Shown here: piece by piece, positions 9,367-24,603 of the stretch
Position numbering within the stretch: the first letter of the stretch is position 1
Layout: the number at the start of each line of letters is the position of its first letter
Notes under the pieces: generated by a model
Told to the model about the DNA's origin: nothing
The model's database searches: none
The model's input: only the letters and a program-made list of their open reading frames with translations
Made by a program: the position numbers and the translations under genes
From: Chloroflexota bacterium
GTDB taxonomy: Bacteria; Chloroflexota; UBA11872
Assembly (NCBI GenBank): GCA_965198185.1
Contig: CBDAOU010000002.1
Location: 1,986,904-2,050,903 of the forward strand
Direction of reading: 5' to 3'
Length of the DNA stretch: 64,000 bases

Positions 9367-9561
9367 TCACTGCTTGTCGGGCGGCGGTCCTTCAGGCGGC
9401 TCCCGAAAGAGGAGGCGAAAGATATAGGCCAGCCAGGCCAGCGAAACCAAGATCACGGGCGGAACCAGGACCGCCAGCAGCAGGCCGGCGTCGACCGTCG
9501 CGCCGCCGGCGTCGGGCGCGCTGCCGGCCGGGCCGGCGCACGTGGCGCCCATCAGCGCCAT
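9367..9561 (-). CDS. Putative small membrane protein, about 64 aa with one or two TM segments.
   Basis: Hydrophobic C-terminus LLLAVLVPPVILVSLAWLAYIFRLLF. Start uncertain. Confidence 0.25.
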   Translation of the reverse strand: MALMGATCAGPAGSAPDAGGATVDAGLLLAVLVPPVILVSLAWLAYIFRLLFREPPEGPPPDKQ

Positions 9562-10317: not shown

Positions 10318-11868
10318 GTGTTTGGATGGTCGACTCGAATGGTAGCCGGTGCCCGACGTCGCCTGACGCGAGCGGGGCCTCCAGCCGCCGTGGCAATGGC
10401 GTCGGGCGCGCTCTATGCCGCGAGCTTTCCGCCGCTCTCGTGGACGGCGTTGGGCTTTGTTGCCTGGGTGCCGCTGATGCTGGCGGTGCACGCACCCGCC
10501 CGCTCGAATGCGGCGGCGCGGGTGCTGGCGGGACTCGGTTGCGGCACGCTCTTCGGTCTTCTCGCGCTGAGCATCGATCCGCCGGAAGTAGTCACCGGTC
10601 CCACATGGGTTGGGGTGAGCGTGGCGGTCGCCGCGGCGTTTGGCCTCGCGGCGGGGCTGCTGGCCGTGCCGGTGCTGACGCCGCGCCTGCATGCGGCGCT
10701 GCGTGGCTGGGGGATCGTGTGGCTGCCGGCCCTGGTGTGGGCGGGCATCGAGTACCTGCGGCTGGTGACCACGGCGGGCCATCAGTGGGGCATGACCGCC
10801 ACCGCGCAGATCGACGTCGCGCCGCTGCGGGCGTTCCTGCCGCTGGCTGGCATGTGGCCGGTGCCGATCGTCGTGATGGCCACCAACGGCGCCATCGTGG
10901 CGCTCATTCTGGCCGCGCGGGGCCGGTGGATCGGGTCGCGGCCGGCCCTGGGCTGGACCGTGGGCGCGGTGGCGGCGGCCTGGATCCTCGGCGGAATTCT
11001 TGCGCTGCTGCCGCCGCCGGCCGCAACCGGCACGCTGCGCGCGGCCGTGGTGCAGCCGGGCGAGCACGTGCCGGATCACCCCCTCACGCGACCGCTCATC
11101 GTGCGCCGCCAATACGCCGAACTCACCGAGGTCATTACGGCGCTGCACGCGCCGCCAACCGCCGCGGCAAAGGGCGCCCAACTGGTGGTGTGGCCGGAGG
11201 CCTCGGGCTGGGTCGATCCGCTGACGCCGACCGGACAGGCCCTGGCCCAGCAGGTGGCCGACGTGGCGGTGCGGTCGGACACGACGATCGTGTGGCCCTA
11301 TTTCATGCGCATCGACGGCGATCGCACGCGCAACGAAGCCGTGCTTGTCTATCCCGATAGGCGGCTCTCGGCCCCCACGACCAAGGCGCATCCGGTTTGG
11401 GTGATCGGTGAGCGCAGCATCACTGCCGACCTGCACCCCGTCTACGCGGTCGACGGAGTGACCCTGGGGCTGGCGCTGGGGCCGGATGGCAGCTACACGG
11501 ACGCCCTGGCGCGGCTGGCCCGGGACGGCGCCCAGGTCGTGGCGGTGCCCACGCACGACTGGGCCGCCTATGCCGGCACGCAGCTGGCGCACCTGCGCGT
11601 GCGGGCGGCCGAGCACCGCGTGGCGATTGTCAAAGCCGACTGGCGCTACGGCTCGGCGATCGTCGCTCCCGATGGAAGCATCGTCGCGGCAACGCCCGTC
11701 GCCACTCCGCTGGAAACCATGCTGGTGGCAGACGTGGCGGTTATGACGCCGGGCACTCCCTATAGCGCCAGCGGTGACTGGCTGGGGGTTGTGAGCCTTG
11801 TCACTGCCGTGGGGGCGGTTGCGGCCGCCGTCGTGACGGGGCGCCTGGGCCGCCGGCGTTCGAGCTAG
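10318..11868 (+). CDS. lnt: Apolipoprotein N-acyltransferase-like protein: N-terminal polytopic domain plus C-terminal carbon-nitrogen hydrolase fold.
   Basis: N-terminal 6-TM region followed by nitrilase-superfamily motifs (VVWPEASGW and the TKAHPV lysine region). No Cys is present in the C-terminal domain (see findings). Confidence 0.65.
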   Translation: MFGWSTRMVAGARRRLTRAGPPAAVAMASGALYAASFPPLSWTALGFVAWVPLMLAVHAPARSNAAARVLAGLGCGTLFGLLALSIDPPEVVTGPTWVGVSVAVAAAFGLAAGLLAVPVLTPRLHAALRGWGIVWLPALVWAGIEYLRLVTTAGHQWGMTATAQIDVAPLRAFLPLAGMWPVPIVVMATNGAIVALILAARGRWIGSRPALGWTVGAVAAAWILGGILALLPPPAATGTLRAAVVQPGEHVPDHPLTRPLIVRRQYAELTEVITALHAPPTAAAKGAQLVVWPEASGWVDPLTPTGQALAQQVADVAVRSDTTIVWPYFMRIDGDRTRNEAVLVYPDRRLSAPTTKAHPVWVIGERSITADLHPVYAVDGVTLGLALGPDGSYTDALARLARDGAQVVAVPTHDWAAYAGTQLAHLRVRAAEHRVAIVKADWRYGSAIVAPDGSIVAATPVATPLETMLVADVAVMTPGTPYSASGDWLGVVSLVTAVGAVAAAVVTGRLGRRRSS

Positions 11869-13486: not shown

Positions 13487-16042
13487 TCAGCTAACGTCGG
13501 GCACGACGCGCCACAGGCGTGCGCCCGACGCCCCCGGGTCATCCTCCGGCGGATGGTCGGCAAAGAAGTCGACGAAGTAGAGCCCGTCTGCCAAGTAGGC
13601 GACTCCGGTGATCGTGGCAAAGCCGTCGCCGACGTACTTCACGAATACCGTTGGCGCACGTGTCACCGCTCCGCCAGCATCCAGCTGAATCTCCCAGATC
13701 TCCTTGCCCCGATCAACGGGTCCGAGCATGAAGGGGATTCCAAACGCGCCCATATAGAGCCGTCCCTGCCGCTCGGGCGGAAACACCCCGCCACTCGCGA
13801 ACGCCATCCCCACAGGGGCCACGGAGGATGGGCCAAAGAGCCTGAGGGCACCATGTCCGTCCCCGCCCTCCTCGTAGGGCCGGCCGTAGTTTCCGCCGGC
13901 GTCCAGTCGCAGCAGGCGGTCGATTGACTGGCCGTTTTCGGACACATAAATCCCGCCGTCCTCCGGGCGTTGGACAATCGCGAAGACATTCCGCAGCCCC
14001 TTGGCCCATTGGTAGGACAGCGGCGCGTCGGGTGCCGACGGATCGAAACGCGGATTGTCGGCGGGCGCGCGGCCATCTCGCTGCAACCGCAGCACCTTGC
14101 CGCCGAAGACGGCGTCGTCCTGCGCTCGCTCCGGCACTTTGCCATCGCCGACCGCCGCATACAGCCGATCGTCCCGCCCGAAGATCAATCCGTGAATCTG
14201 GTGGGAGATGTCCGTCGCTTCACCATCCATGCGCAACACGTCCACGGCGCGCGCGGCCGTGCGGCCGCCGTCGTCGCTCTCCAACCGCACGATCTTGTTG
14301 AAGAGCTTGCCGTCGCGCTTGTACACGGTCGAGACGAACACGTCGCCCGTGGTCGGATCGACGGCGACGCCTGATGTTCCAGCCTCTCCCGACGGGCGAG
14401 ATGGCGGTTCGTCAAGTTGCTCGTTGAGCACATTCGTCGCATACGTCCACACCGAGCCATCCTTACCCAACGCCTTGACCGAACCTTGGAGCTCGGTGAT
14501 ATAGGCCACGGGCGCGTCCGGGGCGTCCGCTGGCGACGGCACGGGCGCCATCTGGACCGGCAGCGTCAATCCGCCAGCCACCAGCTCGACGCGAAATCCC
14601 GCCGGCACGCGCCACGGCACCGCAGGGGCGCGGCCGCGAGAACCGAAAAGGAGCAGAGGCTGGGGAGGAAAGAGCGTAGTCGACGTAGGGGCGACGCCGA
14701 GTGGCGTGGCCTCCGACTCGAAGTAAAAGGCGCCCTCAGCTGTCGGCGCGCCAATCAGCACACCACCCGGTTGCAGCCGCATCCATGGCAGCCAGACGGT
14801 CCGCCGCGCGCCCGTCCCGTCCAGGAACGAGAGCGTCGACGCCGGGATTTCCAGCCCCGCCGCGCCCACGCTGAATTTGAGGAACACGCTCTCATAGCGT
14901 TCGGCCGGCCCGAAGTCGCGCACATCGTTGATGCCCGATAGGCCCATGATTTCGTGTAGCTGGCTAGTTGACCCGGTGACAAGCAGCGAATTGCCGGCGC
15001 CAAGGGCCACCGGTGCGCCGTCAGACGTCTCCCAGCGCAAGCCGACTGGCTGAATATCACGCAACCGCATCGGTCGGGGCATGGCTTCGTCTTGCGGAAT
15101 CGTGCGCGTCACCGTTGGCGACGACCACGCCGACCATTCGCTCACCGGATCGCCGCTCGAATCCCGGTGGCGGGCACGAATCGCGTACGCCGTGTCGTGC
15201 GCCAGACCCATCCGCCCCGCCAGTCGCCCCTCGAAATTCCCTAGCTCCAGCGTGGCTTGGTCGAGCGGCGCCGCCATGACCGTCACCCCCCACACGCGCA
15301 CGCCATCCTGGATTCTGCGGATCTCAAATTCGGTCGCCGAATGCTGGTCCCCCGGATCCGCGTCGACAAACCCGCCGGTCTGCAGGTGAATGAAGTAGGG
15401 CGAAAGCCCTCGCCACAGCAGCGCTGGTGAGGGCTCCAGAATGGTCGGCGCTCGTGGCGGGATGTTGTCGCTGGCGGCCAGCGCCGGTGGTGTGGTGGGA
15501 GTCGCCGTCACCGGCAGCAGGCCCCTCGTCGGCACGGGGGGCGCCGCGGGCGCCAGCGAAATCCCAGCTGCGTTGGCCAGGGTGAGCGCCCCGGCGCCGC
15601 CCACGCCCCGTTCCGCCAGCACGAACGCAGTGACGGCCAGGTAGTCCTCATCCGTCAGACCTCCCGGTCCCACGCCACCTACGGGCATGCGCTCCTTGAT
15701 GAACTCAAATAGATCTAGCGCCGTGGGAAGCCGGTGGTGCAGACCAGATCGGGAGAGTGCGGGGCCGGCCGTGCCCCCCTCCAGACCCGCCCCGTGGCAT
15801 ACGGAGCAGTGCGCCGCATATACCGTCTGTCCCACCGCCGTGGCTGCCTCCGAGGTGACGTCGGCGCGTGGCTCCGGGGTCACCTCCACAATCGGCGATT
15901 CGGTGCTCCGTTCATCCACTGCCAGCACGACGAGGAAGGCCGCCATGGCAATTGCCGCAGCGGCGATCCCCGGCAATGCGCGGACCACCATTCCGCGGTT
16001 CATATCAATCAGCCAGTGTCCTATCGCCTGCCAGCGTCTCAA
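13487..16042 (-). CDS. Membrane-anchored cytochrome c domain fused to a glucose/sorbosone dehydrogenase-type (GSDH/SDH) beta-propeller. Alternative start at 16003.
   Basis: N-terminal TM segment, a CSVCHG haem-binding site, then the long propeller region with motifs typical of PQQ/soluble aldose dehydrogenases (GLRNVFAIV, IYVSENGQ, GGNYGRP). Confidence 0.65.
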   Translation of the reverse strand: MRRWQAIGHWLIDMNRGMVVRALPGIAAAAIAMAAFLVVLAVDERSTESPIVEVTPEPRADVTSEAATAVGQTVYAAHCSVCHGAGLEGGTAGPALSRSGLHHRLPTALDLFEFIKERMPVGGVGPGGLTDEDYLAVTAFVLAERGVGGAGALTLANAAGISLAPAAPPVPTRGLLPVTATPTTPPALAASDNIPPRAPTILEPSPALLWRGLSPYFIHLQTGGFVDADPGDQHSATEFEIRRIQDGVRVWGVTVMAAPLDQATLELGNFEGRLAGRMGLAHDTAYAIRARHRDSSGDPVSEWSAWSSPTVTRTIPQDEAMPRPMRLRDIQPVGLRWETSDGAPVALGAGNSLLVTGSTSQLHEIMGLSGINDVRDFGPAERYESVFLKFSVGAAGLEIPASTLSFLDGTGARRTVWLPWMRLQPGGVLIGAPTAEGAFYFESEATPLGVAPTSTTLFPPQPLLLFGSRGRAPAVPWRVPAGFRVELVAGGLTLPVQMAPVPSPADAPDAPVAYITELQGSVKALGKDGSVWTYATNVLNEQLDEPPSRPSGEAGTSGVAVDPTTGDVFVSTVYKRDGKLFNKIVRLESDDGGRTAARAVDVLRMDGEATDISHQIHGLIFGRDDRLYAAVGDGKVPERAQDDAVFGGKVLRLQRDGRAPADNPRFDPSAPDAPLSYQWAKGLRNVFAIVQRPEDGGIYVSENGQSIDRLLRLDAGGNYGRPYEEGGDGHGALRLFGPSSVAPVGMAFASGGVFPPERQGRLYMGAFGIPFMLGPVDRGKEIWEIQLDAGGAVTRAPTVFVKYVGDGFATITGVAYLADGLYFVDFFADHPPEDDPGASGARLWRVVPDVS

Positions 16043-16125
16043 GAACCCTGCGCCGCTGGGCGCGCCAGTCTATTACTCGTCTCCGCATTGCACGGCCCGC
16101 TCCGCCGTCGTAGCGTAGGGACACC

Positions 16126-17595
16126 ATGGCCACCGCCGCCGCCTCGACGTTCAGCGTGGGCCGGATCGCGCTTGCCGGCGCGCTGCGCCGCGCCATTGGC
16201 GACGACTGGGTCATGAGCGAGCCCGATGAGGTGGCCATCTACGCCTACGACGGCTCCGTGGAGCACGCGCTGCCCGACGCGGTCGCGTTCCCGCGGGACA
16301 CCGCCGAGGTTCAGGCGGTGGTGCGCATCGCTCACGAGCTTGGCGTGCCGATCATCGGCCGCGGCGCGGGCACCGGGCTCAGCGGCGGCGCCATCGCCGC
16401 GTGCGGCGGCATCGTGGTGAGCACCTCCCGCATGAACCGCATCCTCGAAGTGGACTACCGCAACATGCAGGCCGTGGTGGAAGCCGGCGTGGTGAACGCC
16501 GACCTCAGCGCACACACCTCCGGCTACGGGTTTCACTACGCCCCGGACCCGTCGAGTCAAGCGGCCTGCACCATCGGGGGCAACATCGCCACCAACGCCG
16601 GCGGGCCCCACACCCTGCTCCACGGCGTGACCACCAACCATGTGCTCGGGGTCGAATTCGTCACCCTTGACGGCCGCATCGTCAACGCCGGTGGCCCGGC
16701 CCTGGACCAGCCCGGCTACGACCTGGCGGGGCTCTTTTGCGGCAGCGAGGGAACGCTGGGCATCGCCACCAAGGCCGTCGTGCGCCTGGTCCGCACGCCG
16801 GCTCAGGTGCGCACCATGCTGGCGTCCTTTGCCGAGGTCGCCCAGTCCAGCGCCGCGGTCTCCGGCATCATCGCCGCGGGCATCGTTCCGGCGGCGATGG
16901 AGATGATGGACCAGATCTCGCTGGAGGCCATCTCCCAGTACGTGCCGGCGGCCAGGCTGCCCACCGACCAGGCCGCCGTGCTGCTGATCGAGCTGGAAGG
17001 CGTGGCCGCTGAGCTGGAACCCCTTGAAGCGGCGATCCGCGGCGTGTTCGCCGAGCATGGGGCGCACGAGGTTCGCGTGGCCGCCGACGCGCGCGAGCGC
17101 GCTCTCCTCTGGCTCGGCCGCAAGAGCGCATTCGGCGCCATGGGTCGCATCTCGCCGAACTACTACGTGCAGGACGGTGTGATCCCCCGCACGAAAATCA
17201 CCGACGTGCTGGCGCAAATCGCCGGCGTGAGCGACTTCTTCACGATCCCCATCGCCAACGTCTTTCACGCCGGCGACGGCAACCTGCACCCGCTGCTGCT
17301 GTTCGACGACCGCGAGGCCGGCGCGTTGGACCGCGTGATCGAGTGCGGCACCGCCGTGCTGAAGGTGTGCGCCGACGCGGGCGGCATGCTCAGCGGCGAG
17401 CACGGTATCGGGATGGAGAAGCACCGCAACATGGGGCTCGTGTACAGCGACGCCGACCTGGAGCGCATGCAGCGCCTGCGGCAGGTCTTCAACCCGCGCA
17501 ACCTCTTCAACCCGGGCAAGATCTTCCCCACCGCGGTCTCCTGCGCCGAGGTGAACAACCTGCGCCGCCGCGTCACCGCCGGCGCCCACCCATAA
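16126..17595 (+). CDS. glcD: FAD-linked oxidase (glycolate oxidase subunit GlcD/D-lactate dehydrogenase family).
   Basis: FAD-binding PCMH motifs (GRGAGTGLSGGA) and the C-terminal FAD-oxidase_C region. Confidence 0.8.
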   Translation: MATAAASTFSVGRIALAGALRRAIGDDWVMSEPDEVAIYAYDGSVEHALPDAVAFPRDTAEVQAVVRIAHELGVPIIGRGAGTGLSGGAIAACGGIVVSTSRMNRILEVDYRNMQAVVEAGVVNADLSAHTSGYGFHYAPDPSSQAACTIGGNIATNAGGPHTLLHGVTTNHVLGVEFVTLDGRIVNAGGPALDQPGYDLAGLFCGSEGTLGIATKAVVRLVRTPAQVRTMLASFAEVAQSSAAVSGIIAAGIVPAAMEMMDQISLEAISQYVPAARLPTDQAAVLLIELEGVAAELEPLEAAIRGVFAEHGAHEVRVAADARERALLWLGRKSAFGAMGRISPNYYVQDGVIPRTKITDVLAQIAGVSDFFTIPIANVFHAGDGNLHPLLLFDDREAGALDRVIECGTAVLKVCADAGGMLSGEHGIGMEKHRNMGLVYSDADLERMQRLRQVFNPRNLFNPGKIFPTAVSCAEVNNLRRRVTAGAHP

Positions 17596-17597
17596 GC

Positions 17598-18240
17598 GTC
17601 CCGCCCGCGCCCAAGCTCTGCGCGGTCGTGCTGGCGGCCGGGCGCTCCGAGCGCTTCGGCTCACCCAAGCCGCTAATCCGCTGGGGCAACGTCTCGCTGA
17701 TCGCGCACCAGGTGCGGACGCTCGCGGGCCTCGCAGAGGTGGCTGAAGTGTTTGTCGTCACGGGCCATCGCGCCGACGAGGTGCGCGCGGCGCTGGACGG
17801 CCTACCCGCGCGCACCGTGCACAATCCCGACTACGCGCGCGGCCGCGCCACGTCCGTCGCCTGCGCCGCCCGCGCTATGCCCGAGAACTGCGACCGGAAT
17901 CCTGCTGGCCAGCGTCGACCAGCCGCTGCACCCGGGAGCTCTGGCCGACCTGATCGCCAGTTGGCGCGCTGCGCCCCACGACATCGTCAGGCCGCTGCAC
18001 GAGGGCCAGCACGGTCATCCGGTCATCTTCCCCGGCGATCTGCGCGCCGAGCTGACCGCCGTGGACGACGCCACCGAAGGCCCCCGCGCCGTGGTCCGCC
18101 GCCACGCCGAGCGCCTGCGCGACGCGCCCACCGCCCATCCCCACGTCCTCCTGAACCTGAACACCCGCGCGGCCTACGCCGACGCCCTGGCCGCGTTCGA
18201 CCTGCCCGACTCCGACGCGCCGCCCGACAGCGGGGCATAA
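17598..18240 (+). pseudogene. mocA: MobA-like NTP-transferase (molybdenum-cofactor cytidylyltransferase MocA-like) with a +1 frameshift near 17892-17897. It may be a pseudogene or a sequencing error.
   Basis: Frame A reads CAVVLAAGRSERFGSPKPLI...VHNPDYARGRATSVACAARAMPEN. Frame B continues GILLASVDQPLHPGALADLIASW...GHPVIFPGDL and stops at 18240. The join matches the MocA order (NPDYAQG...GDMP). The start codon is not identifiable. Confidence 0.6.
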
Positions 18241-18251
18241 TGTCGGCCCCG

Positions 18252-18327
18252 GGGCCCATAGCTCAGCTGGAAGAGCGCCTCAATGGCATTGAGGAGGTCG
18301 TCGGTTCAAGTCCGACTGGGTCCACCA
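18252..18327 (+). tRNA. tRNA-Ala (anticodon GGC).
   Basis: Cloverleaf read by hand. Acceptor GGGCCCA pairs with TGGGTCC and carries the G3:U70 Ala identity pair. U8, D-arm GCTC/GAGC, anticodon stem CCTCA/TGAGG, loop AT-GGC-AT, T-arm GTCGG-TTCAAGT-CCGAC, discriminator A, encoded CCA. Confidence 0.9.
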
Positions 18328-18344
18328 TTCGCAGGGTTTTGACC

Positions 18345-18818
18345 TTGACGGCACCAGTTATTGCGCACCGCAACGACTGCATTTACCTAGTCGCTTGCGT
18401 CAAGAAGAAGCGTTCGAAACCAGCAAAGGCGAAGGACCTCTACGAGTCGTCTTTGTTCGTCAAGTCGCGTGCCTATGTCGAGAAGACGGGACGGTCATGG
18501 TTCATTCTGTCCGCCAAGCACGGTCTCGTTCATCCTGAGACGGTCGTTTGCCCCTACGATCGCGCGCTGAACAATATGCGCATCAACGCACGGCGAGCGT
18601 GGGCACGGCAGGTCCTCAGCCAACTTGAACCGCATCTCGACGGAGTCAGCTCCGTCGTATTCCTGGCCGGCGAGCGATATCGGGAGCACCTGAAACCCAA
18701 TATTCGAGCGCGGGGTATCAATGTAATCGTGCCCATGAAGGGACTTCGCATCGGAGAAATGCTTGGTTGGCTGACCGAGAAGTGTCGAGACCACCCGGGC
18801 CAAGGTCAACCGCTGTAG
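18345..18818 (+). CDS. Small conserved hypothetical protein (about 157 aa) with the N-terminal motif IYLVAC-VKKKR and ...WFILSAKHGL...PYD... It lies in a low-GC islet. TTG start (18339 or 18345).
   Basis: Frame continues from the tRNA 3' end. GC content drops sharply relative to the flanks. Protein-like α/β pattern. The family is not confidently named. Confidence 0.5.
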   Translation: MTAPVIAHRNDCIYLVACVKKKRSKPAKAKDLYESSLFVKSRAYVEKTGRSWFILSAKHGLVHPETVVCPYDRALNNMRINARRAWARQVLSQLEPHLDGVSSVVFLAGERYREHLKPNIRARGINVIVPMKGLRIGEMLGWLTEKCRDHPGQGQPL

Positions 18819-19576
18819 AGCGATCCTTGAGACACCCCACAGGCAGGGCAAACGACGTCGCTAGGTTCTATGCCCTGGTCGACCGCCTGGAGGCCGGCGT
18901 TGGCGGCACCCGGGTGCTGGCCGACTGCAACGGCAAGCTTAACTGGCCGCGGCGGGGCGTCTACTTCTTCTTTGAGGATGGGGAGATTCGCTCGCGGTCT
19001 GGTGCCGGACTCCGGGTGGTGCGCGTCGGCACTCACGCGTTGAAACGCCGCGCCCGGACCACAATCTGGGGGCGGCTCTCGCAGCATCGCGGCGTAGCGC
19101 GGACCGGCGGCGGGAATCACCGTGGATCAATCTTCCGCCTGCTCGTGGGCAAGGCGCTGGCTCACCGGGGGGACCTTCCCCTGCCGCAGTCGTGGGGCGT
19201 TAAGGGTGACCTCGGCGCGGCGGCACGACGATTCGGTGTGGACCGCCCTGCAGGCAAGCAAGACGAGTCTGCGTTGGAGGTGCTTGTCAGCAAGCACATC
19301 GGCGCCATGCCGTTCCTTTGGCTCAATGTGGACGACGCGCCCGGGCCTGACAGCCAGCGCGCCGCAATCGAGCGACACGCCATTGCCCTGCTTAGCGGCG
19401 GGGATGACGGCGGATCATCCCTCGACCCGCCGTCGGACGGCTGGCTCGGACGCTTCAGCGACCGCGATCTCGTGCGCCGCTCCGGCCTCTGGAACAACCG
19501 CCATGTCGGGGAGCGCTATGACCCTTCCTTCCTTGATGTGTTGGCCGAGCAGGTTGACGCAACTGAGCCTCCCTAG
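18767..19576 (+). CDS. GIY-YIG nuclease-family protein with a C-terminal domain of unknown function. Overlaps the upstream gene by 52 nt.
   Basis: WPRRGVYFFFEDGE ... RVVRVGTHAL ... TTIWGRLSQHRG ... RGSIFRLLVG fits the GIY...YIG...R...H/E core. ATG at 18767 is the only start that keeps the conserved FYALVDRL N-terminus. Confidence 0.6.
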   Translation: MADREVSRPPGPRSTAVERSLRHPTGRANDVARFYALVDRLEAGVGGTRVLADCNGKLNWPRRGVYFFFEDGEIRSRSGAGLRVVRVGTHALKRRARTTIWGRLSQHRGVARTGGGNHRGSIFRLLVGKALAHRGDLPLPQSWGVKGDLGAAARRFGVDRPAGKQDESALEVLVSKHIGAMPFLWLNVDDAPGPDSQRAAIERHAIALLSGGDDGGSSLDPPSDGWLGRFSDRDLVRRSGLWNNRHVGERYDPSFLDVLAEQVDATEPP

Positions 19577-19654
19577 CGTGCCGGATCTTCCCGGATACGG
19601 TTCGCCAATTTGGCCTGATGAATTGCGGTCAGCCGAGGAAATGGGCACGTCCAG

Positions 19655-20281
19655 CTAGCTCAACCACCGCTCGAACAGGGCCGCGCCGCCAAGGGCAAGG
19701 AAGGCGACTAGGACGTTCTTGATGAGGCGTCCGGCCCATGAGGCGACGAAGAATCGCTTCCAGCCGAGGCCGGCGGCGCCCGCCACCGCGCCCGCAATGT
19801 CGAACACGGGGTTTGGCGTTGCGGCGATGACGAATACCACCACAAGGCCCCAGCGCCGGATCCAACCCTCGACCCGCTGGTAGGCCTTTTGCCGGCGAAT
19901 CCAGGGCGACCCGGTGACGCCCAGCAGGTACGACACCATCTCGCCGATGACCTGACCCGTGGTGCCCACCAGCGCCGGCAGCCAGGGGTCGCCGAACACG
20001 ATGGCGAAGGCGCCGATGCTGGCGAAGCCGAACCCCGGAAGCATGAACAGCGCGCCGGACTGCACCGACAGGATGAACAGCAGGAGGAATCCCGCCAGCC
20101 CGACCGCGCGGATCTCGCCGGCGAACGGGATGGCGGCGATGCTGCCGGCCATGGCCACCACGAGCAGCACGATTTGCGGCGCCAGCAACCGCCGGCTGGA
20201 CGGTCGGGGCGGATCCTCGGAGGGTGTTGCGGCTCCGGGATCCGCCGGCTGCGAGGCGGGGTTCGTATCCTCAGCCGTCAT
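19655..20281 (-). CDS. DedA/SNARE-associated (VTT-domain) membrane protein.
   Basis: Multi-TM protein with the DedA-type motif G..G...G.P...W. Confidence 0.65.
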   Translation of the reverse strand: MTAEDTNPASQPADPGAATPSEDPPRPSSRRLLAPQIVLLVVAMAGSIAAIPFAGEIRAVGLAGFLLLFILSVQSGALFMLPGFGFASIGAFAIVFGDPWLPALVGTTGQVIGEMVSYLLGVTGSPWIRRQKAYQRVEGWIRRWGLVVVFVIAATPNPVFDIAGAVAGAAGLGWKRFFVASWAGRLIKNVLVAFLALGGAALFERWLS

Positions 20282-20301
20282 CGAAACCGCTTACGCCAGC
20301 C

Positions 20302-21123
20302 ATGCCCGAGTTGCCCGAAGTCGAGACGATTCGACGTGATCTCGCTGCCGCCATCGTGGGTCGCCGCGTGTTGCGGTCCGAGGTTCTCGACGCAAGCCTA
20401 GTCCACGCACCGTCGGTCGCGGCGTTCAGCCGCGGGCTTTGCGGAAAGACCGTGCAGCTCGTGGGTCGCCGCGGGAAGTATCTGCTGGTGCACCTGGATG
20501 ACGGCGTGCTGGTGCTGCACCTGATGATGAGCGGCCGCATCTTCCTGCGGCCGGCGGACGATCCGGTGGAGCACACACGGCTGATCGTCGAATTCGACGA
20601 GGGACCAGCGCTGCACTTCGTGGACACGCGGCGCTTCGGCAGGGCCTGGCTGCTGCCGCCGCCGGCGATTGACACGCTGTTGGCGAGCCTGGGGCCGGAG
20701 CCGTTGGAGCCAGGATTCGACGGGCGCGTCCTGCACACCGCGCTGGAAGGACGCCGCCGGGCGATCAAGCCCACGTTGCTGGATCAGCGGATCGTGGCCG
20801 GCGTGGGGAATATCTACGCGGATGAGGCGCTGTGGCTGGCCCGCATCCACCCGGACACTCCAGCCGGATCGCTGAGCCTCCGGCGACTCGACAACCTCGC
20901 GCGGGCGATCGTCGCCACGCTGCGGGCCGGCATCGAGCACGGCGGCACGAGTTTTCGCACGCACGTTGGAAGCGACGGCGAGCGCGGGCGGTACCAGGAG
21001 CGGCTCAACGTCTTCCAGCGCACCGGCGAGCCTTGCCCGCGCTGCGGCCGCGCCATCGAGCGGTTGGTGATCGGGCAGCGGGGCACGCACATCTGCCCCC
21101 GCTGCCAGCGGCGCCGCGCCTAG
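20302..21123 (+). CDS. mutM: Formamidopyrimidine-DNA glycosylase.
   Basis: N-terminal MPELPEVE and the C-terminal zinc finger CPRCG...CPRCQ. Confidence 0.9.
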   Translation: MPELPEVETIRRDLAAAIVGRRVLRSEVLDASLVHAPSVAAFSRGLCGKTVQLVGRRGKYLLVHLDDGVLVLHLMMSGRIFLRPADDPVEHTRLIVEFDEGPALHFVDTRRFGRAWLLPPPAIDTLLASLGPEPLEPGFDGRVLHTALEGRRRAIKPTLLDQRIVAGVGNIYADEALWLARIHPDTPAGSLSLRRLDNLARAIVATLRAGIEHGGTSFRTHVGSDGERGRYQERLNVFQRTGEPCPRCGRAIERLVIGQRGTHICPRCQRRRA

Positions 21124-21162
21124 GCGAGCTTGCGATCGCCCTGGTTGACCCGGGAACGGGCA

Positions 21163-21193
21163 CCCTTCGACAGGCTCAGGGCGAACGGGCGAG
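21163..21193. repeat. Dispersed REP-like element CCCTTCGACAGGCTCAGGGCGAACGG between convergent mutM and rqcH.
   Basis: Shares a 26/27-nt core with 45949-45975 and the GCTCA...CGAACGG core with the 27162 array. Confidence 0.6.
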
Positions 21194-21198
21194 GTGGG

Positions 21199-22890
21199 TT
21201 AGCCGTCGTCCGCGAGCGGCGCGACGCGGATGGTTCGGTGGCGGCGGTAGGTGACCTGACCCGGCCCGGCCCCACGGATCGCGCGCACGTGACGGCGGCG
21301 GGTGACGTCCACGTCGACGGCGGTCGAGGCGTGGCCGGCGCTCAGGTACGCGGCGATCCGCGCCACCGCGTGGATTAGCTCTGGCGCGGGATCGTCGCCC
21401 GGATCGCGCAGCAGGACGTGCGCTCCCGGCATGTTGCGGGCGTGAAACCAGAGATCGTCGGGCGCCGACTCGCGAAACGTGAGGCGATGGTTTTCCGCCG
21501 CGGTGCGGCCGGCGACCACCTGGCGCCCCTGGATGCGGCGCACCGCCGCCGCCGCGGATTCCGGCCTTCGCTTGCGTCGCGGCTGGCGCAGGTAGCCCGC
21601 CTCGGCGAGGAGGCCTTCGATCTGGCGCGAGACGGCCGGTGAATCCGACCGTCGCAAGTCGTCCGCCGCCTGCCGCAGAAAGGCCAATTCCAGCTCCGCC
21701 CGTCGCAGTCGTCGTGGAACGAGACGCGCGGCGCGCTTCAAATCCCGATAGCGCGCGAAGTAGGTCTGGGCGTTGGCGCCGACCGACTTGGCGGGGTCGA
21801 GCGTGAGCCGCTGGCCGTGCGCCTCGAAGTGGGTAGCGCCGGCCGGTATGACGTGGGCGTATTCCAGCAAGGCCGCGCCGGCGGCTCGCGCGGCGCTGAT
21901 GTCGGCGCCAGTCGGCACCGCCGCGCGCAGCGAAGCGATGCGACGTTCGACCCGTGCAATCGCCGTGTTCAGCGGCTCCAGCACGCGAGATTTCACCGTA
22001 TCCACAGCGGTCGGGGGTTCGTCCGCCTCGTAGTAGCTCTCTAGCGCTTCGCTCATCGAGCCGACCGGCTGGCAGCTACGGTCCAGGTGGGTCAGCGGGT
22101 AGGGGGCATAGGCCTGCCAGCCGCCGTCGATGGGCACCAGACACGGCTGCGCCGCGCCGGCGTCGATTCCAGCCGCGATATCGCGCAGGGCTGCGAGCGC
22201 CTCCGGCCAGGCGGCAACGTCGCGGCTTGAGATTCCGGGATCCACCCCAGCGCGCGCCAACGACTCGCGGGCGAGCGTGGGGCTCACGCCCGCCGCCGCC
22301 TGCAGCAGGGCGCGCCAGGCCGGCACGCCCCGTGCGGCTTGCGTCGCCACGTCGGCGGGCGCGGCAATGCTTGGGCCAGGCAGGGACAGTTGGGCAGGTG
22401 GCTGGTACGGCGCGCGCGGCATCAGGCGGCGGCGACCTCCGTCGCCGCTGACCCGCCGCAGCGCATCCCGAATGAGCCCCTGCTCGTCCACCAGGATGAC
22501 GTTGGCCTGCCGGCCAATGATCTCCACGATGACGCGGTGCTCAGCCACCGGCCCGTCCGGGTCGGGGCGCGCGCGCACCTGCAAGACCAGCACACGTTCG
22601 AGGGGAAGCTGCGTCGCGCCGACGAGACGGCCGCCGCGCACCCACTTGCGCAACAGCAGGAGCAGCGGACTGGCGGGCGCCTTGCCGGCGTGGAGCCGTC
22701 CGCTCACAAAGTGCACGCGGGAGTGAACCGGGCCGGCCTGAATCAGCAGGTGATGCGCCGCGCGGTTGGCGTAGATTTCCAGCGCGATCTGGTTGGGCTC
22801 GGGCGCCGCAACCCGCTGAATGCGTCCGCCGACGGCCCGGTCCTCGATCTCGCGGCGCACCGCTGCCAGCGTGAGCACGTCAAAGTTCAT
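21199..22890 (-). CDS. rqcH: NFACT-family ribosome quality-control factor (RqcH/FbpA-like) with a C-terminal NFACT-R/DUF814 domain.
   Basis: N-terminal MNFDVLTLAAV...IQRVAAPEPNQIALEIY, a coiled-coil middle, and C-terminal FHARNMPGAHVLL. Confidence 0.75.
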   Translation of the reverse strand: MNFDVLTLAAVRREIEDRAVGGRIQRVAAPEPNQIALEIYANRAAHHLLIQAGPVHSRVHFVSGRLHAGKAPASPLLLLLRKWVRGGRLVGATQLPLERVLVLQVRARPDPDGPVAEHRVIVEIIGRQANVILVDEQGLIRDALRRVSGDGGRRRLMPRAPYQPPAQLSLPGPSIAAPADVATQAARGVPAWRALLQAAAGVSPTLARESLARAGVDPGISSRDVAAWPEALAALRDIAAGIDAGAAQPCLVPIDGGWQAYAPYPLTHLDRSCQPVGSMSEALESYYEADEPPTAVDTVKSRVLEPLNTAIARVERRIASLRAAVPTGADISAARAAGAALLEYAHVIPAGATHFEAHGQRLTLDPAKSVGANAQTYFARYRDLKRAARLVPRRLRRAELELAFLRQAADDLRRSDSPAVSRQIEGLLAEAGYLRQPRRKRRPESAAAAVRRIQGRQVVAGRTAAENHRLTFRESAPDDLWFHARNMPGAHVLLRDPGDDPAPELIHAVARIAAYLSAGHASTAVDVDVTRRRHVRAIRGAGPGQVTYRRHRTIRVAPLADDG

Positions 22891-23732
22891 CGCGGATCGA
22901 GGATCGTGGGCTCCGGGCTCGACGGGGCCGGAGGGAAGGCGTCCCACCGACGCTCGACCCATTGAGTAGCGACCGTTGCCGCAGTCTGCACCGCCTCGCC
23001 AAGCCGGCCCGTGCGCTGGAGGCTCACGAACAAGGCAGTCGCAAACACGTCGCCGGCGCCGGTTGGACCGGCATCGGTCACCCGGCGCACGGGCACTTCC
23101 GAACAGCCGCCGTCCGCAAACACCTGCACCGGCAGCGGACCGCGGGTGAGCACGCCGACTTTCGCCCGCTGGAGATATCCAACACCGGCCACAGGGTCGA
23201 ACTGGATGTCTTCGCTGCTGAGCACGAGCACGTCAATCGCGTCGAGAAACGCCTCCGCGTCGGGCCAGTCTCCGCCATACACGGCGCCGTCGGCGGCCAC
23301 GCGGCGGAGCAAGCCCTGCGCGGTGAGGCCCGTGACTTCGGCGTGTGGCAGTTGGCCGAGCAATTCGGGGCCGATCTCGCCGACGACCGGCGCCAGGTGC
23401 ACGACGGCGAACTCTTGCGGCAGCCCAGCCAGGTCGGCGGTCTCGACGGCAGGAGCAACCACCGGGGCGTGCTGGGTTCGGCCGTGCGACCCATACGTGT
23501 TGCGCATCGCTGTTGTCGCCGCGGCCGGGCGAGCAATCCACCGAATGCCCGGGCATGCGGTTGCCAGCGCGTCCGCGTCGGCCGCGGCGGCGCGGGCGAC
23601 CGCCGTGACCTGCATTCCAAGCCGCTGCGCCACGAGGCTGCTGTAGAACGCCGTCCCGCCGAACTCCCAGCCCGACGGGTGGAGGTCGCGGGTGACGTGC
23701 CCGACCGTCAGGTAGGTCGAGCCGCGGCGCAC
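22887..23732 (-). CDS. PfkB-family carbohydrate kinase (ribokinase-like).
   Basis: DAGPTGAGDVFATA matches the PfkB signature 2. Confidence 0.7.
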   Translation of the reverse strand: MRRGSTYLTVGHVTRDLHPSGWEFGGTAFYSSLVAQRLGMQVTAVARAAAADADALATACPGIRWIARPAAATTAMRNTYGSHGRTQHAPVVAPAVETADLAGLPQEFAVVHLAPVVGEIGPELLGQLPHAEVTGLTAQGLLRRVAADGAVYGGDWPDAEAFLDAIDVLVLSSEDIQFDPVAGVGYLQRAKVGVLTRGPLPVQVFADGGCSEVPVRRVTDAGPTGAGDVFATALFVSLQRTGRLGEAVQTAATVATQWVERRWDAFPPAPSSPEPTILDPR

Positions 23733-23742
23733 CGCAGCCGTG

Positions 23743-24603
23743 CTAAGCCTTCGGGCTGATCACGACCCGACGCTCATCGCCTTCACCGATGCTATAGGTG
23801 CGGACGTTTTCGTCGTCGGCCAGGGCCACGTGGATGAGCCGGCGTTCATTGGCCGGCATGGACTCGAGCGTCACGGGCTCCTGGGTCTCGGATACCTCGT
23901 CCGCGAGAGTCTCGGCGAGCTCCTGCAGGTGATCGGCGCGGCGCGCGCGATAGCTATTGACGTCGATGAGCACGCGGCACGGTTGGCCGAGTTGCCGTCC
24001 GGCCATGAGGTTGATGAGGTAGCCGAACGACCGCAGCGTGGACCCATGCCTTCCGATCAGCTTGGAGAAATCGTCGTCGCCGACGACGTTGAAGGCGAGC
24101 GGGTCTTCGTCGACGAGCTCGATCTCCGCGATGAAGCCCATGCGATCGAGCATGCCGGCGAGCATGTCCTCGACGATGTCCTGCAGCTCTTCGCCGCTCT
24201 CAACCAGAGAGCGAGACGCGCGGGGGCGGGGCGCGGGTTGCTCCGCGACCGGCGCCTCGCTGGGTTCCGACACGGTTGGAGCGGGCGGCGGCGGCGGTGG
24301 GACGGCCGGCTCGCTCGGCTCGGCGACGCGGGCGGGGGGCTCCACGTCCGGCTCGGCCGGGGGCTCATGCTCCGCCTCGTCGATGGTGGCGGAAAAGGGC
24401 CGCTCGCGGCGCACGACGCGCACGCGCGCTTCGGCATCCCGGCGCAGCAGGCGCGAGCCGCCACTGGACAGGATTTCGACGTCAACGTCGTCGATGGTGG
24501 CATTGAGTTGCCGCAGCGCCTGCCGCAGCGCCTCTTCAACAGATGCGCCGGTCGCTTCGACGCTCTCTGGAGCGTCCGGGGAGTCGGTTGGATGGTCAGC
24601 CAC
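23743..24603 (-). CDS. khpB: RNA-binding protein KhpB/Jag (Jag_N, KH and R3H domains) with a Pro-rich insert.
   Basis: Jag N-terminal domain, a KH-like region and the C-terminal R3H motif (ERRLIHVALAD). It sits immediately downstream of yidC as in the canonical cluster. Confidence 0.75.
   Translation of the reverse strand: MADHPTDSPDAPESVEATGASVEEALRQALRQLNATIDDVDVEILSSGGSRLLRRDAEARVRVVRRERPFSATIDEAEHEPPAEPDVEPPARVAEPSEPAVPPPPPPAPTVSEPSEAPVAEQPAPRPRASRSLVESGEELQDIVEDMLAGMLDRMGFIAEIELVDEDPLAFNVVGDDDFSKLIGRHGSTLRSFGYLINLMAGRQLGQPCRVLIDVNSYRARRADHLQELAETLADEVSETQEPVTLESMPANERRLIHVALADDENVRTYSIGEGDERRVVISPKA

Follow-up and report, generated by a model that had tools for sequence, protein, structure and literature searches.

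A PDC-M57 cassette behind tRNA-Ala in a Chloroflexota genome: a DpdC-like protein and a putative GIY-YIG-like nuclease as a candidate defence pair

Introduction

PDC-M57 is a candidate defence system in the PADLOC catalogue. It corresponds to CAS_00183, one of 145 candidates derived from genes embedded in BREX, DISARM and type I restriction-modification (RM) systems (Payne et al., bioRxiv 10.1101/2024.01.29.577857), and neither a mechanism nor a domain reading for it is found in the searchable text and supplements of that preprint. The name PDC-M57 itself did not turn up in the searchable literature. Here we analyse a locus that matches this candidate, located in a stretch of 64,000 nucleotides from a Chloroflexota bacterium (GenBank assembly GCA_965198185.1, contig CBDAOU010000002.1, positions 1,986,904 to 2,050,903 of the forward strand), which will be called the window. 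The locus consists of two genes, called A and B, that lie directly behind a tRNA-Ala gene. An earlier note on this DNA had singled them out as a candidate compact defence or toxin module, and the present analysis partly confirms this: the observation is real, with a number of corrections.

The family of gene A has been described from several sides. DUF6884 proteins are recognised by the motifs CxxxK and LSAxxG, and they have a common fold with YaaA, with a positively charged cleft that is thought to bind DNA; YaaA is a peroxide-stress DNA-binding protein and part of the oxidative-stress response (PMC11701544). DUF6884 has also been given as the domain of DpdC (PMC11888242), and DpdC has been assigned to the YaaA family PF03883 (PMC12839542). 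In vitro, DpdC converts preQ0-DNA to ADG-DNA, that is, it hydrates preQ0 (7-cyano-7-deazaguanine) in duplex DNA (PMC10164549). As to defence, Dag1 and Dag2, which have glycosylase folds, target phages that carry 7-deazaguanine (bioRxiv 10.1101/2025.10.29.685425), and our literature search found no report linking GIY-YIG proteins with 7-deazaguanine defence.

The reading that we favour for the pair is a sensor-plus-nuclease defence cassette, to which we would give about an even chance. In the following, the evidence on the two genes and on their occurrence is presented, and the alternatives are discussed where the data bear on them.

Results and Discussion

The two genes and the PDC-M57 match

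Behind tRNA-Ala(GGC) (18252–18327, + strand), gene A (18339 or 18345 to 18818, + strand, 157–159 aa) is followed by gene B (18827–19576, + strand, 249 aa), so the two same-strand genes described in the earlier note are indeed present. When run against PADLOC, a check that the note had proposed, both proteins are strongly matched by the PDC-M57 models. Residues 15–149 of A align to positions 4–136 of the 138 in PDC-M57A (PDLC04712; E=1.7e-43), and residues 28–266 of the longest form of B to positions 4–234 of the 238 in PDC-M57B (PDLC04714; E=7e-82). The genes are adjacent, with the gene order and strand of that system. Judged from these profile matches, the cassette is an instance of PDC-M57, and as a catalogue entry it is thus not new. 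A difference lies in the surroundings, since the copies from which the candidate was nominated are embedded in BREX, DISARM or type I RM, whereas the cassette here stands alone beside a tRNA.

Gene A starts at TTG 18339, twelve nucleotides past the tRNA, or at TTG 18345, which has AGGG 9–12 nt upstream, and it stops with TAG at 18816–18818. Its protein matches the Pfam family PF21818 (DUF6884) over the complete profile (positions 1–135 of 135) with E=2e-50 and 170.8 bits, the cut-off being 30. The segments C20-V-K-K-K24 and L57-S-A-K-H-G62 correspond to the CxxxK and LSAxxG motifs of the family; across 56 homologues, K24, L57, S58 and A59 do not vary, and conservation is 90% or higher at C20 and G62. 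The length of about 157 aa and the sequence signature given previously (ACVKKK, DLYESSLF, WFILSAKHGL, PYD) are borne out, while the membership in the DpdC/YaaA superfamily had been overlooked. Some of the pair-type A proteins (P0172, P0183 and P0225) are extended at the N-terminus by about 100 aa for which Pfam gives no match.

The AlphaFold model of A has a predicted local distance difference test score (pLDDT) of 90.2. Its top fold match in the PDB is Escherichia coli YaaA (DUF328, 5CAJ), with E=1.2e-3, a probability of 1.0 and a TM-score of 0.47 over 121 columns at 13% identity, so that model and fold search together point to the YaaA-like alpha/beta ('cantaloupe') fold. In the identity and TM-score just given A differs from YaaA, which is moreover described as part of the oxidative-stress response. 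At the sequence level, A gives weak Pfam and NCBIfam matches to YaaA, and a sequence search against the PDB returned chance matches to eIF4A alone. Four DpdC hidden Markov models (HMMs) of PADLOC also match weakly, the best with E=2.7e-5, in the central part of the profiles.

A is thus a miniature member of a family whose proteins work on or with 7-deazaguanine in DNA. What it has in common with DpdC is the Pfam family, as given in PMC11888242, and the weak matches to the DpdC HMMs; in addition, DpdC acts on a base in duplex DNA, and the phage relatives of A are tied to the same preQ0/DpdA machinery (see below). We call it DpdC-like, and not DpdC, because at 159 aa it is half the size of the DpdC profiles, which have about 310–320 positions, and because no dpdA, dpdB or que (preQ0) gene accompanies A-B in 82 genome loci. 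Moreover, a putative nuclease partner such as B is not among the components dpdA–K of the Dpd system given in PMC11888242.

For gene B, the longest open reading frame (ORF) starts at TTG 18767, encodes 269 aa and overlaps gene A by 52 nt, and from this overlap translational coupling had been proposed. However, most B homologues are 237–249 aa long, conservation in a 25-sequence alignment begins only at residue 27 of the long ORF, and the nearest relatives begin with MRH.. We therefore favour a start at TTG 18827, which lies 8 nt past the stop of A, and the overlap and the coupling accordingly become doubtful. A GGAGA is located 11 nt before TTG 18767, and the longer form stays possible.

There are more than 6800 homologues of B, all with the precomputed Pfam label PF26468 (GIY_YIG_3). 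In the 249-aa numbering, G44, Y46, V65, R66, G68, R83, H87, E182 and N223 are invariant. The predicted structure (pLDDT 89.5) has three strands in the order b1-b2-a1...b3-a3, with G44-V-Y46 on the strand 44–54 and V65-R66-V-G68 on the strand 62–70, the second Tyr being replaced by Arg, and R83, H87, E182 and N223 fall in elements that match the Arg helix, the post-strand-3 helix and the downstream Asn of GIY-YIG domains. Compared to I-TevI, the UvrC N-terminal domain and Eco29kI, the order of the motifs (G-V-Y, R-V-G, R83..H87, E182, N223) and the three-strand topology are alike, whereas the Tyr-to-Arg replacement and the much longer loops, with about 75 residues from the Arg helix to strand 3, are different. 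We have also aligned B with hhalign to a small profile of I-TevI-type domains, whose I-TevI sequence is 100% identical to T4-like phages. The probability obtained is 1.2%, and the sole alignment pairs R83/H87 with R27/H31 of I-TevI. The earlier assignment of B as a GIY-YIG protein is thus backed by the Pfam label and the motifs, while neither this comparison nor the Foldseek, profile and Pfam searches given below confirm it, and we describe B as a putative GIY-YIG-like nuclease, which is likely but unproven. The extra C-terminal domain that had been ascribed to B could not be separated; the conserved residues run to residue 236, and the model is compact and confident overall.

Conservation of the pair

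A search with the B profile against 185,579 species genomes gave 419 loci, the best 80 of which were examined. They come from Dehalococcoidia and other Chloroflexota, Alpha- and Gammaproteobacteria, Acidobacteriota, Nitrospirota, Verrucomicrobiota and Binatia, and their B proteins are 53–69% identical to that of the window. All of these 80 loci (L003–L082) are from metagenome-assembled genomes. Some of the isolate names resemble those of marine or sponge-symbiont bin series; if they are such, this would hint at recent exchange inside a single kind of community.

In 74 of the 80 genomes, each of a different species, A immediately precedes B on the same strand, and the same holds for 11 distinct viral contigs. 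Three natural fusions of A and B into a single chain were found (P0048, P0074 and a 420-aa ORF of the prophage locus L104). The pairwise identities of A and of B are correlated, with a Spearman coefficient of 0.56 that is reached by 0 of 999 Mantel permutations, and the ratio of non-synonymous to synonymous substitution (dN/dS) between the window and its relative L002 is 0.21 for A and 0.34 for B. These results show that A and B travel together, are occasionally fused, co-evolve, and are both under purifying selection in this lineage. The check proposed in the earlier note, whether the pair is a conserved unit in other genomes, thus comes out in favour of the pair.

The data on the pair also bear on the idea of a toxin-antitoxin (TA) or toxin-immunity pair, in which B would be a toxic nuclease restrained by the small A. 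That there are two genes with the small one upstream agrees with it, as do the type II TA genes (ParE, helix-turn-helix neighbours) near some copies of the pair, and the truncated B found in the sister strain L001 (see below) could reflect toxicity. However, three independent single-chain fusions are difficult to reconcile with a toxin and its antidote. Furthermore, A consists of a conserved, enzyme-like and presumably DNA-binding domain, which phages also have on its own, and Pfam and PADLOC give no match to a known TA family for either protein. We consequently regard this explanation, which the earlier note had offered beside defence, as very unlikely.

Gene B is not bound to A everywhere. 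On plasmids B is rare, with 9 records: one Deinococcus plasmid has a DUF6884 gene upstream, while on the remaining ones, haloarchaeal megaplasmids, the neighbours are different. Since the haloarchaeal B, with about 39% identity, is preceded by DUF955 and not by DUF6884, the B family also pairs with other partners. An example is Haloarcula taiwanensis pNYT1 (L091, 4930–7572), where a DUF955 (ImmA/IrrE-like) gene, a distant B homologue and an HNH endonuclease gene follow one another.

A second and larger gene of the YaaA superfamily (about 325–430 aa) was observed beside A-B in 6 of the 74 genomes (L007 6750–8039, L016 3651–4820, L024 6763–7881, L035 6778–7896, L042 7008–7979 and L047 6760–7935). 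The three that were scanned match PF03883 with E values of about 1e-8 to 1e-9, and the ORFs in L047 and L007 carry, in addition, a ParE/YoeB-like toxin domain at the C-terminus.

Relatives of gene A in phages

Viral contigs contain about eight times as many A-like loci as B loci (135 vs 16), and none of 50,697 cultured phage genomes has B. In at least 17 of the 71 viral loci that have A only, A is found between QueC and QueD-QueE, beside a YhhQ-type preQ0 transporter, or beside DpdA. Thus, a solo DUF6884 gene stands in the order QueC-A-QueD-QueE in the phage preQ0 clusters of L112, L117, L137, L157, L160, L162 and L175; TGT/DpdA-like-DUF6884 fusions occur in L116 and L163; and gp32 (DUF6884) of Halorubrum tailed virus 29 (HRTV-29, genus Dpdavirus) abuts an annotated DpdA gene (L184 4926–6051). 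The pair-type and the phage-type A proteins have every conserved motif in common. The annotations that DUF6884 genes bear in cultured phages are limited to hypothetical, uncharacterized and 'peroxide stress protein YaaA'.

One locus brings the pair itself close to this machinery. In the prophage L104 (4701–8698), recognised by a lambda-type portal and a GH108 endolysin, QueC, the A/B fusion, a SIR2_2-domain protein (547 aa) and a nucleoside 2-deoxyribosyltransferase-like gene follow in a row, an arrangement that fits a defence or accessory locus.

Another option to be considered is that the pair is a DNA-modification module, in which a DpdC-like A together with B alters 7-deazaguanine or another base in the cell's own or in mobile DNA. 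DpdC, the only biochemically characterised relative of A, is indeed a modification enzyme, the phage A-like genes lie in modification clusters, with the fusion beside QueC in L104 as a further case, and the nuclease fold of B is unconfirmed. On the other hand, neither DpdA/TGT nor QueC/D/E is found beside A-B in the 82 loci, which means that no substrate-installing enzyme travels with the pair. In addition, the scarcity of B in viral loci and its absence from cultured phages are the opposite of what would be expected for an enzyme of phage self-protection. We consider a modification role to be improbable.

The tRNA-Ala site as a hotspot

Relatives with the same site were found by using the upstream MobA-like gene as an anchor, so that the site could be compared across the Chloroflexota clade, and positions 15000–24000 of the window were aligned to these loci with blastn. 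The sister strain L087, which is 98% identical, matches the window over 15000–18330 at 98.2% and over 19656–20295 at 98.75%. Between the points equivalent to 18330 and 19656 it has 4.3 kb of unrelated DNA, and A-B is not there. These sharp junctions set the limits of the islet, which thus comprises the 1325 bp from 18331 to 19655 (no strand) and is present in the window and in L001; its junction with the tRNA lies at 18328–18331.

The other relatives differ in what they hold at the site, a point that the earlier note had proposed to check. In L089 the site is empty, the MobA-like gene and tRNA-Ala being followed by a DAO-family oxidase gene. L083 has a Dcm methylase, Vsr, a HATPase protein and an AspBHI/Mrr-type enzyme, and in three further relatives an uncharacterised gene is accompanied by an NmeDI_C protein (L084), an HNH protein (L086) or a DUF5677 protein (L088). 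The cargo measures 1–5 kb, and Lactamase_B genes are also among it. In L083, L084 and L086–L089 the same tRNA follows the MobA-like gene, and the cargo of L084, L086, L087 and L088 is bordered by additional tRNA-Ala copies, full or partial; one copy in L088 (83% identical) takes in about 125 nt of the 3' end of the MobA-like gene. These duplicated segments, which sometimes include part of the upstream gene, suggest that the exchange takes place by homologous recombination and not by an integrase. The tRNA-Ala site is thus a small hotspot without an integrase, at which near-identical strains exchange restriction-type cargo.

In line with this, no integrase was found in the window or the flanks of the islet by ORF and annotation checks, and a search of 18150–19800 for att-like direct repeats of the tRNA 3' end gave only repeats of 10–36 nt at chance level, none of which involves that end. 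Both absences had been stated previously, and the conclusion drawn from them, a degraded island or a cassette mobilised without an integrase, fits the present data. The 3' end of a tRNA as the site of an island holds for this clade but not for the gene pair. Among the 80 genome loci, a tRNA lies within about 600 nt of the pair in two, and neither is placed as here: L049 has a tRNA-Lys some 300 nt downstream, and in L054 a tRNA-Leu precedes the pair by about 550 nt. Adjacency to a tRNA was therefore rejected as a feature of the family.

Two other relatives carry the cassette. L001, a 515-kb contig of a near-identical strain (99.6%), has the same arrangement as the window, but a 10-bp insertion, CGCTCGATGA, at 10690–10700 (near window position 19514) shifts the frame of gene B and removes its last 19 or so residues, the invariant F235 and L236 among them. 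Either a real inactivating mutation or an assembly error could account for this. In L002, which is 82–84% identical, the homology to the window stops about 10 nt past the stop of B. The tRNA-Ala before gene A has decayed there (9480–9555), with mutations in the acceptor stem, D-loop and T-loop and no ARAGORN call, and the A-B pair behind it is intact.

A mobile element without benefit to the host was also considered, with B as a free-standing homing-type endonuclease and A as a DNA-targeting accessory. Many GIY-YIG enzymes are homing endonucleases (relatives of I-TevI), and such an element would account for solo insertions with sharp junctions amid unrelated housekeeping genes, for the high identity across phyla and for the lack of an integrase. 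However, the loci have no conserved target gene or flank in common, and the cultured phages, where homing endonucleases abound, lack B altogether. Co-evolution and purifying selection on both genes also speak against this scenario, and since the hotspot gathers unrelated cargo as well, the mobility need not come from B. A purely selfish cassette is in our view quite unlikely.

Proposed mode of action

In the reading that we favour, a sensor and a nuclease act one after the other. A would bind or scan DNA and flip a base into a pocket with the conserved Cys20 and Lys24, and B would be the effector, most likely a divergent GIY-YIG-type nuclease, that cuts the DNA marked by A. As the cassette contains no methyltransferase or other self-protection gene, the action would resemble that of type IV (modification-dependent) restriction, and for the same reason, with no immunity gene present, the cell's own DNA must lack the signal.

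From the relatives of A, 7-deazaguanine bases are the most economical candidate for this signal. That the target is 7-deazaguanine-modified phage or plasmid DNA is a tentative suggestion, one that we hold for possible rather than probable. In its most specific form, the proposal is that a mini DpdC-type protein has been co-opted from DNA modification as a reader of preQ0/ADG-type bases and hands the site over to a divergent GIY-YIG-like nuclease, which would be a new kind of modification-dependent restriction; this we put forward as a speculation, conceivable but with the balance of chances against it. The conserved Cys of A may in that case serve as a nitrile-trapping nucleophile. A reader of a modified base combined with DNA breakage, and no cognate methyltransferase, is what the proposed mechanism would have in common with type IV restriction and with Dag1/Dag2. 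The components are different: the reader would have a YaaA/DUF6884 fold and the effector would belong to PF26468, as compared to SRA/HNH, GmrSD and glycosylase folds.

A number of results weigh against a defence function of this type. As to B, the Foldseek search found nothing in the PDB (best E=2.6) or BFVD, the B profile found nothing relevant among PDB sequences, and 0 of 54 family members were matched by the GIY-YIG models in the local Pfam copy; profile or fold similarity to established GIY-YIG members was thus not detectable in these searches. As to the surroundings, the immediate neighbours of the pair in the 74 genomes are mostly housekeeping genes (126 families among 142 ORFs), and just a handful match PADLOC models, so that there is no strong defence-island signal outside this clade. 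Neither in the window nor in the 82 genome loci does a Que, TGT or DpdA gene stand beside A-B, and the link to 7-deazaguanine is hence by homology only. The A/B fusion beside QueC in L104 could equally mean a modification role, and the truncation of B in L001 may indicate that the system is decaying in this lineage. Finally, the searchable literature contains no experiment on PDC-M57, and it points towards repair for one relative of A, namely the Bacillus subtilis DUF6884 protein YfjM, which was reported on abasic and ribonucleotide lesions (PMC11701544).

This last result leads to the possibility of a DNA-repair module, where A would flip a damaged or non-canonical nucleotide (abasic, ribonucleotide or oxidised) and B would incise beside it, as the GIY-YIG domain of UvrC does. 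The pull-down of YfjM on abasic and RNA-base lesions is in favour of this, as is the fold common with YaaA (PMC11701544), which is also the best fold match of A. The housekeeping character of most neighbours agrees as well, and 650 bp downstream of the cassette the window has an Fpg/MutM gene. However, this proximity is not kept in L002 and L087. The pair also has a sparse, patchy distribution, with 419 loci in 185,579 species and 55–69% identity across phyla, its composition is foreign, a 98%-identical sister strain does without it, and relatives have RM-type genes in its place. Together with the match to a PADLOC candidate derived from RM- and BREX-embedded genes, this makes a repair function unlikely, although its chance is not negligible.

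With respect to the earlier note, the outcome is mixed. The compact defence module at a tRNA is partly supported, B is a putative nuclease, and the toxin-immunity variant is unlikely.

Boundaries, composition and flanking genes

ARAGORN confirms the tRNA-Ala(GGC) directly 5' of the islet, which forms its left border and, in this clade, the conserved anchor of the hotspot, has an encoded CCA and is the only tRNA in the window. At the right end, a non-coding segment of 79 nt (19577–19655) follows gene B. The composition of the islet departs from that of the host, although less broadly than claimed, since the reported drop in GC content over about 1.3 kb is real but shorter. GC values of 0.57–0.61 are found only at about 18200–18950 (some 700 bp), mostly in gene A, while gene B, at 0.67, is close to the window mean of 0.685. 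The GC content at third codon positions is low for both genes, 0.67 for A and 0.78 for B vs 0.83–0.92 in five neighbouring genes; only for A is the overall GC clearly low. Taking these results together, the segment 18331–19655 is best explained as a horizontally acquired two-gene cassette 3' of tRNA-Ala(GGC).

A scan of 17500–20400 gave no promoter-like site, and terminator-like sites were at chance level. The cassette, which starts 12–18 nt past the tRNA and lacks a promoter-like site, is probably transcribed together with the tRNA.

Both flanking genes are outside the cassette. On the right is the dedA-like gene already noted there (19655–20281, − strand), which was identified as an ORF, with the Pfam domain VTT_dom found on the identical gene of L001. 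On the left is the gene of a MobA-like nucleotidyltransferase (17629–18240, + strand), which is frameshifted in the window compared to L001, a strain of about 99% identity where it is intact (203 aa). The frame of its N-terminal part runs via the tRNA into gene A, creating an artefactual ORF of 491 aa (17343–18818).

Conclusion

Modification of DNA with 7-deazaguanine is a widespread counter-measure of phages against restriction. The connection of A with DpdC and with the 7-deazaguanine clusters of phages gives PDC-M57, so far a catalogue entry, a concrete and testable hypothesis. The tRNA-Ala site at which it was found here is, in turn, a natural and clear-cut case of a small hotspot that operates without an integrase.

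If the hypothesis is true, modification-dependent immunity would gain a reader fold and an effector family that are both new to it, and a function would be at hand for DUF6884, a Pfam family that is common in phages. A fold that has so far been tied to modification, in DpdC, and to stress protection, in YaaA, would then also serve as an immune sensor.

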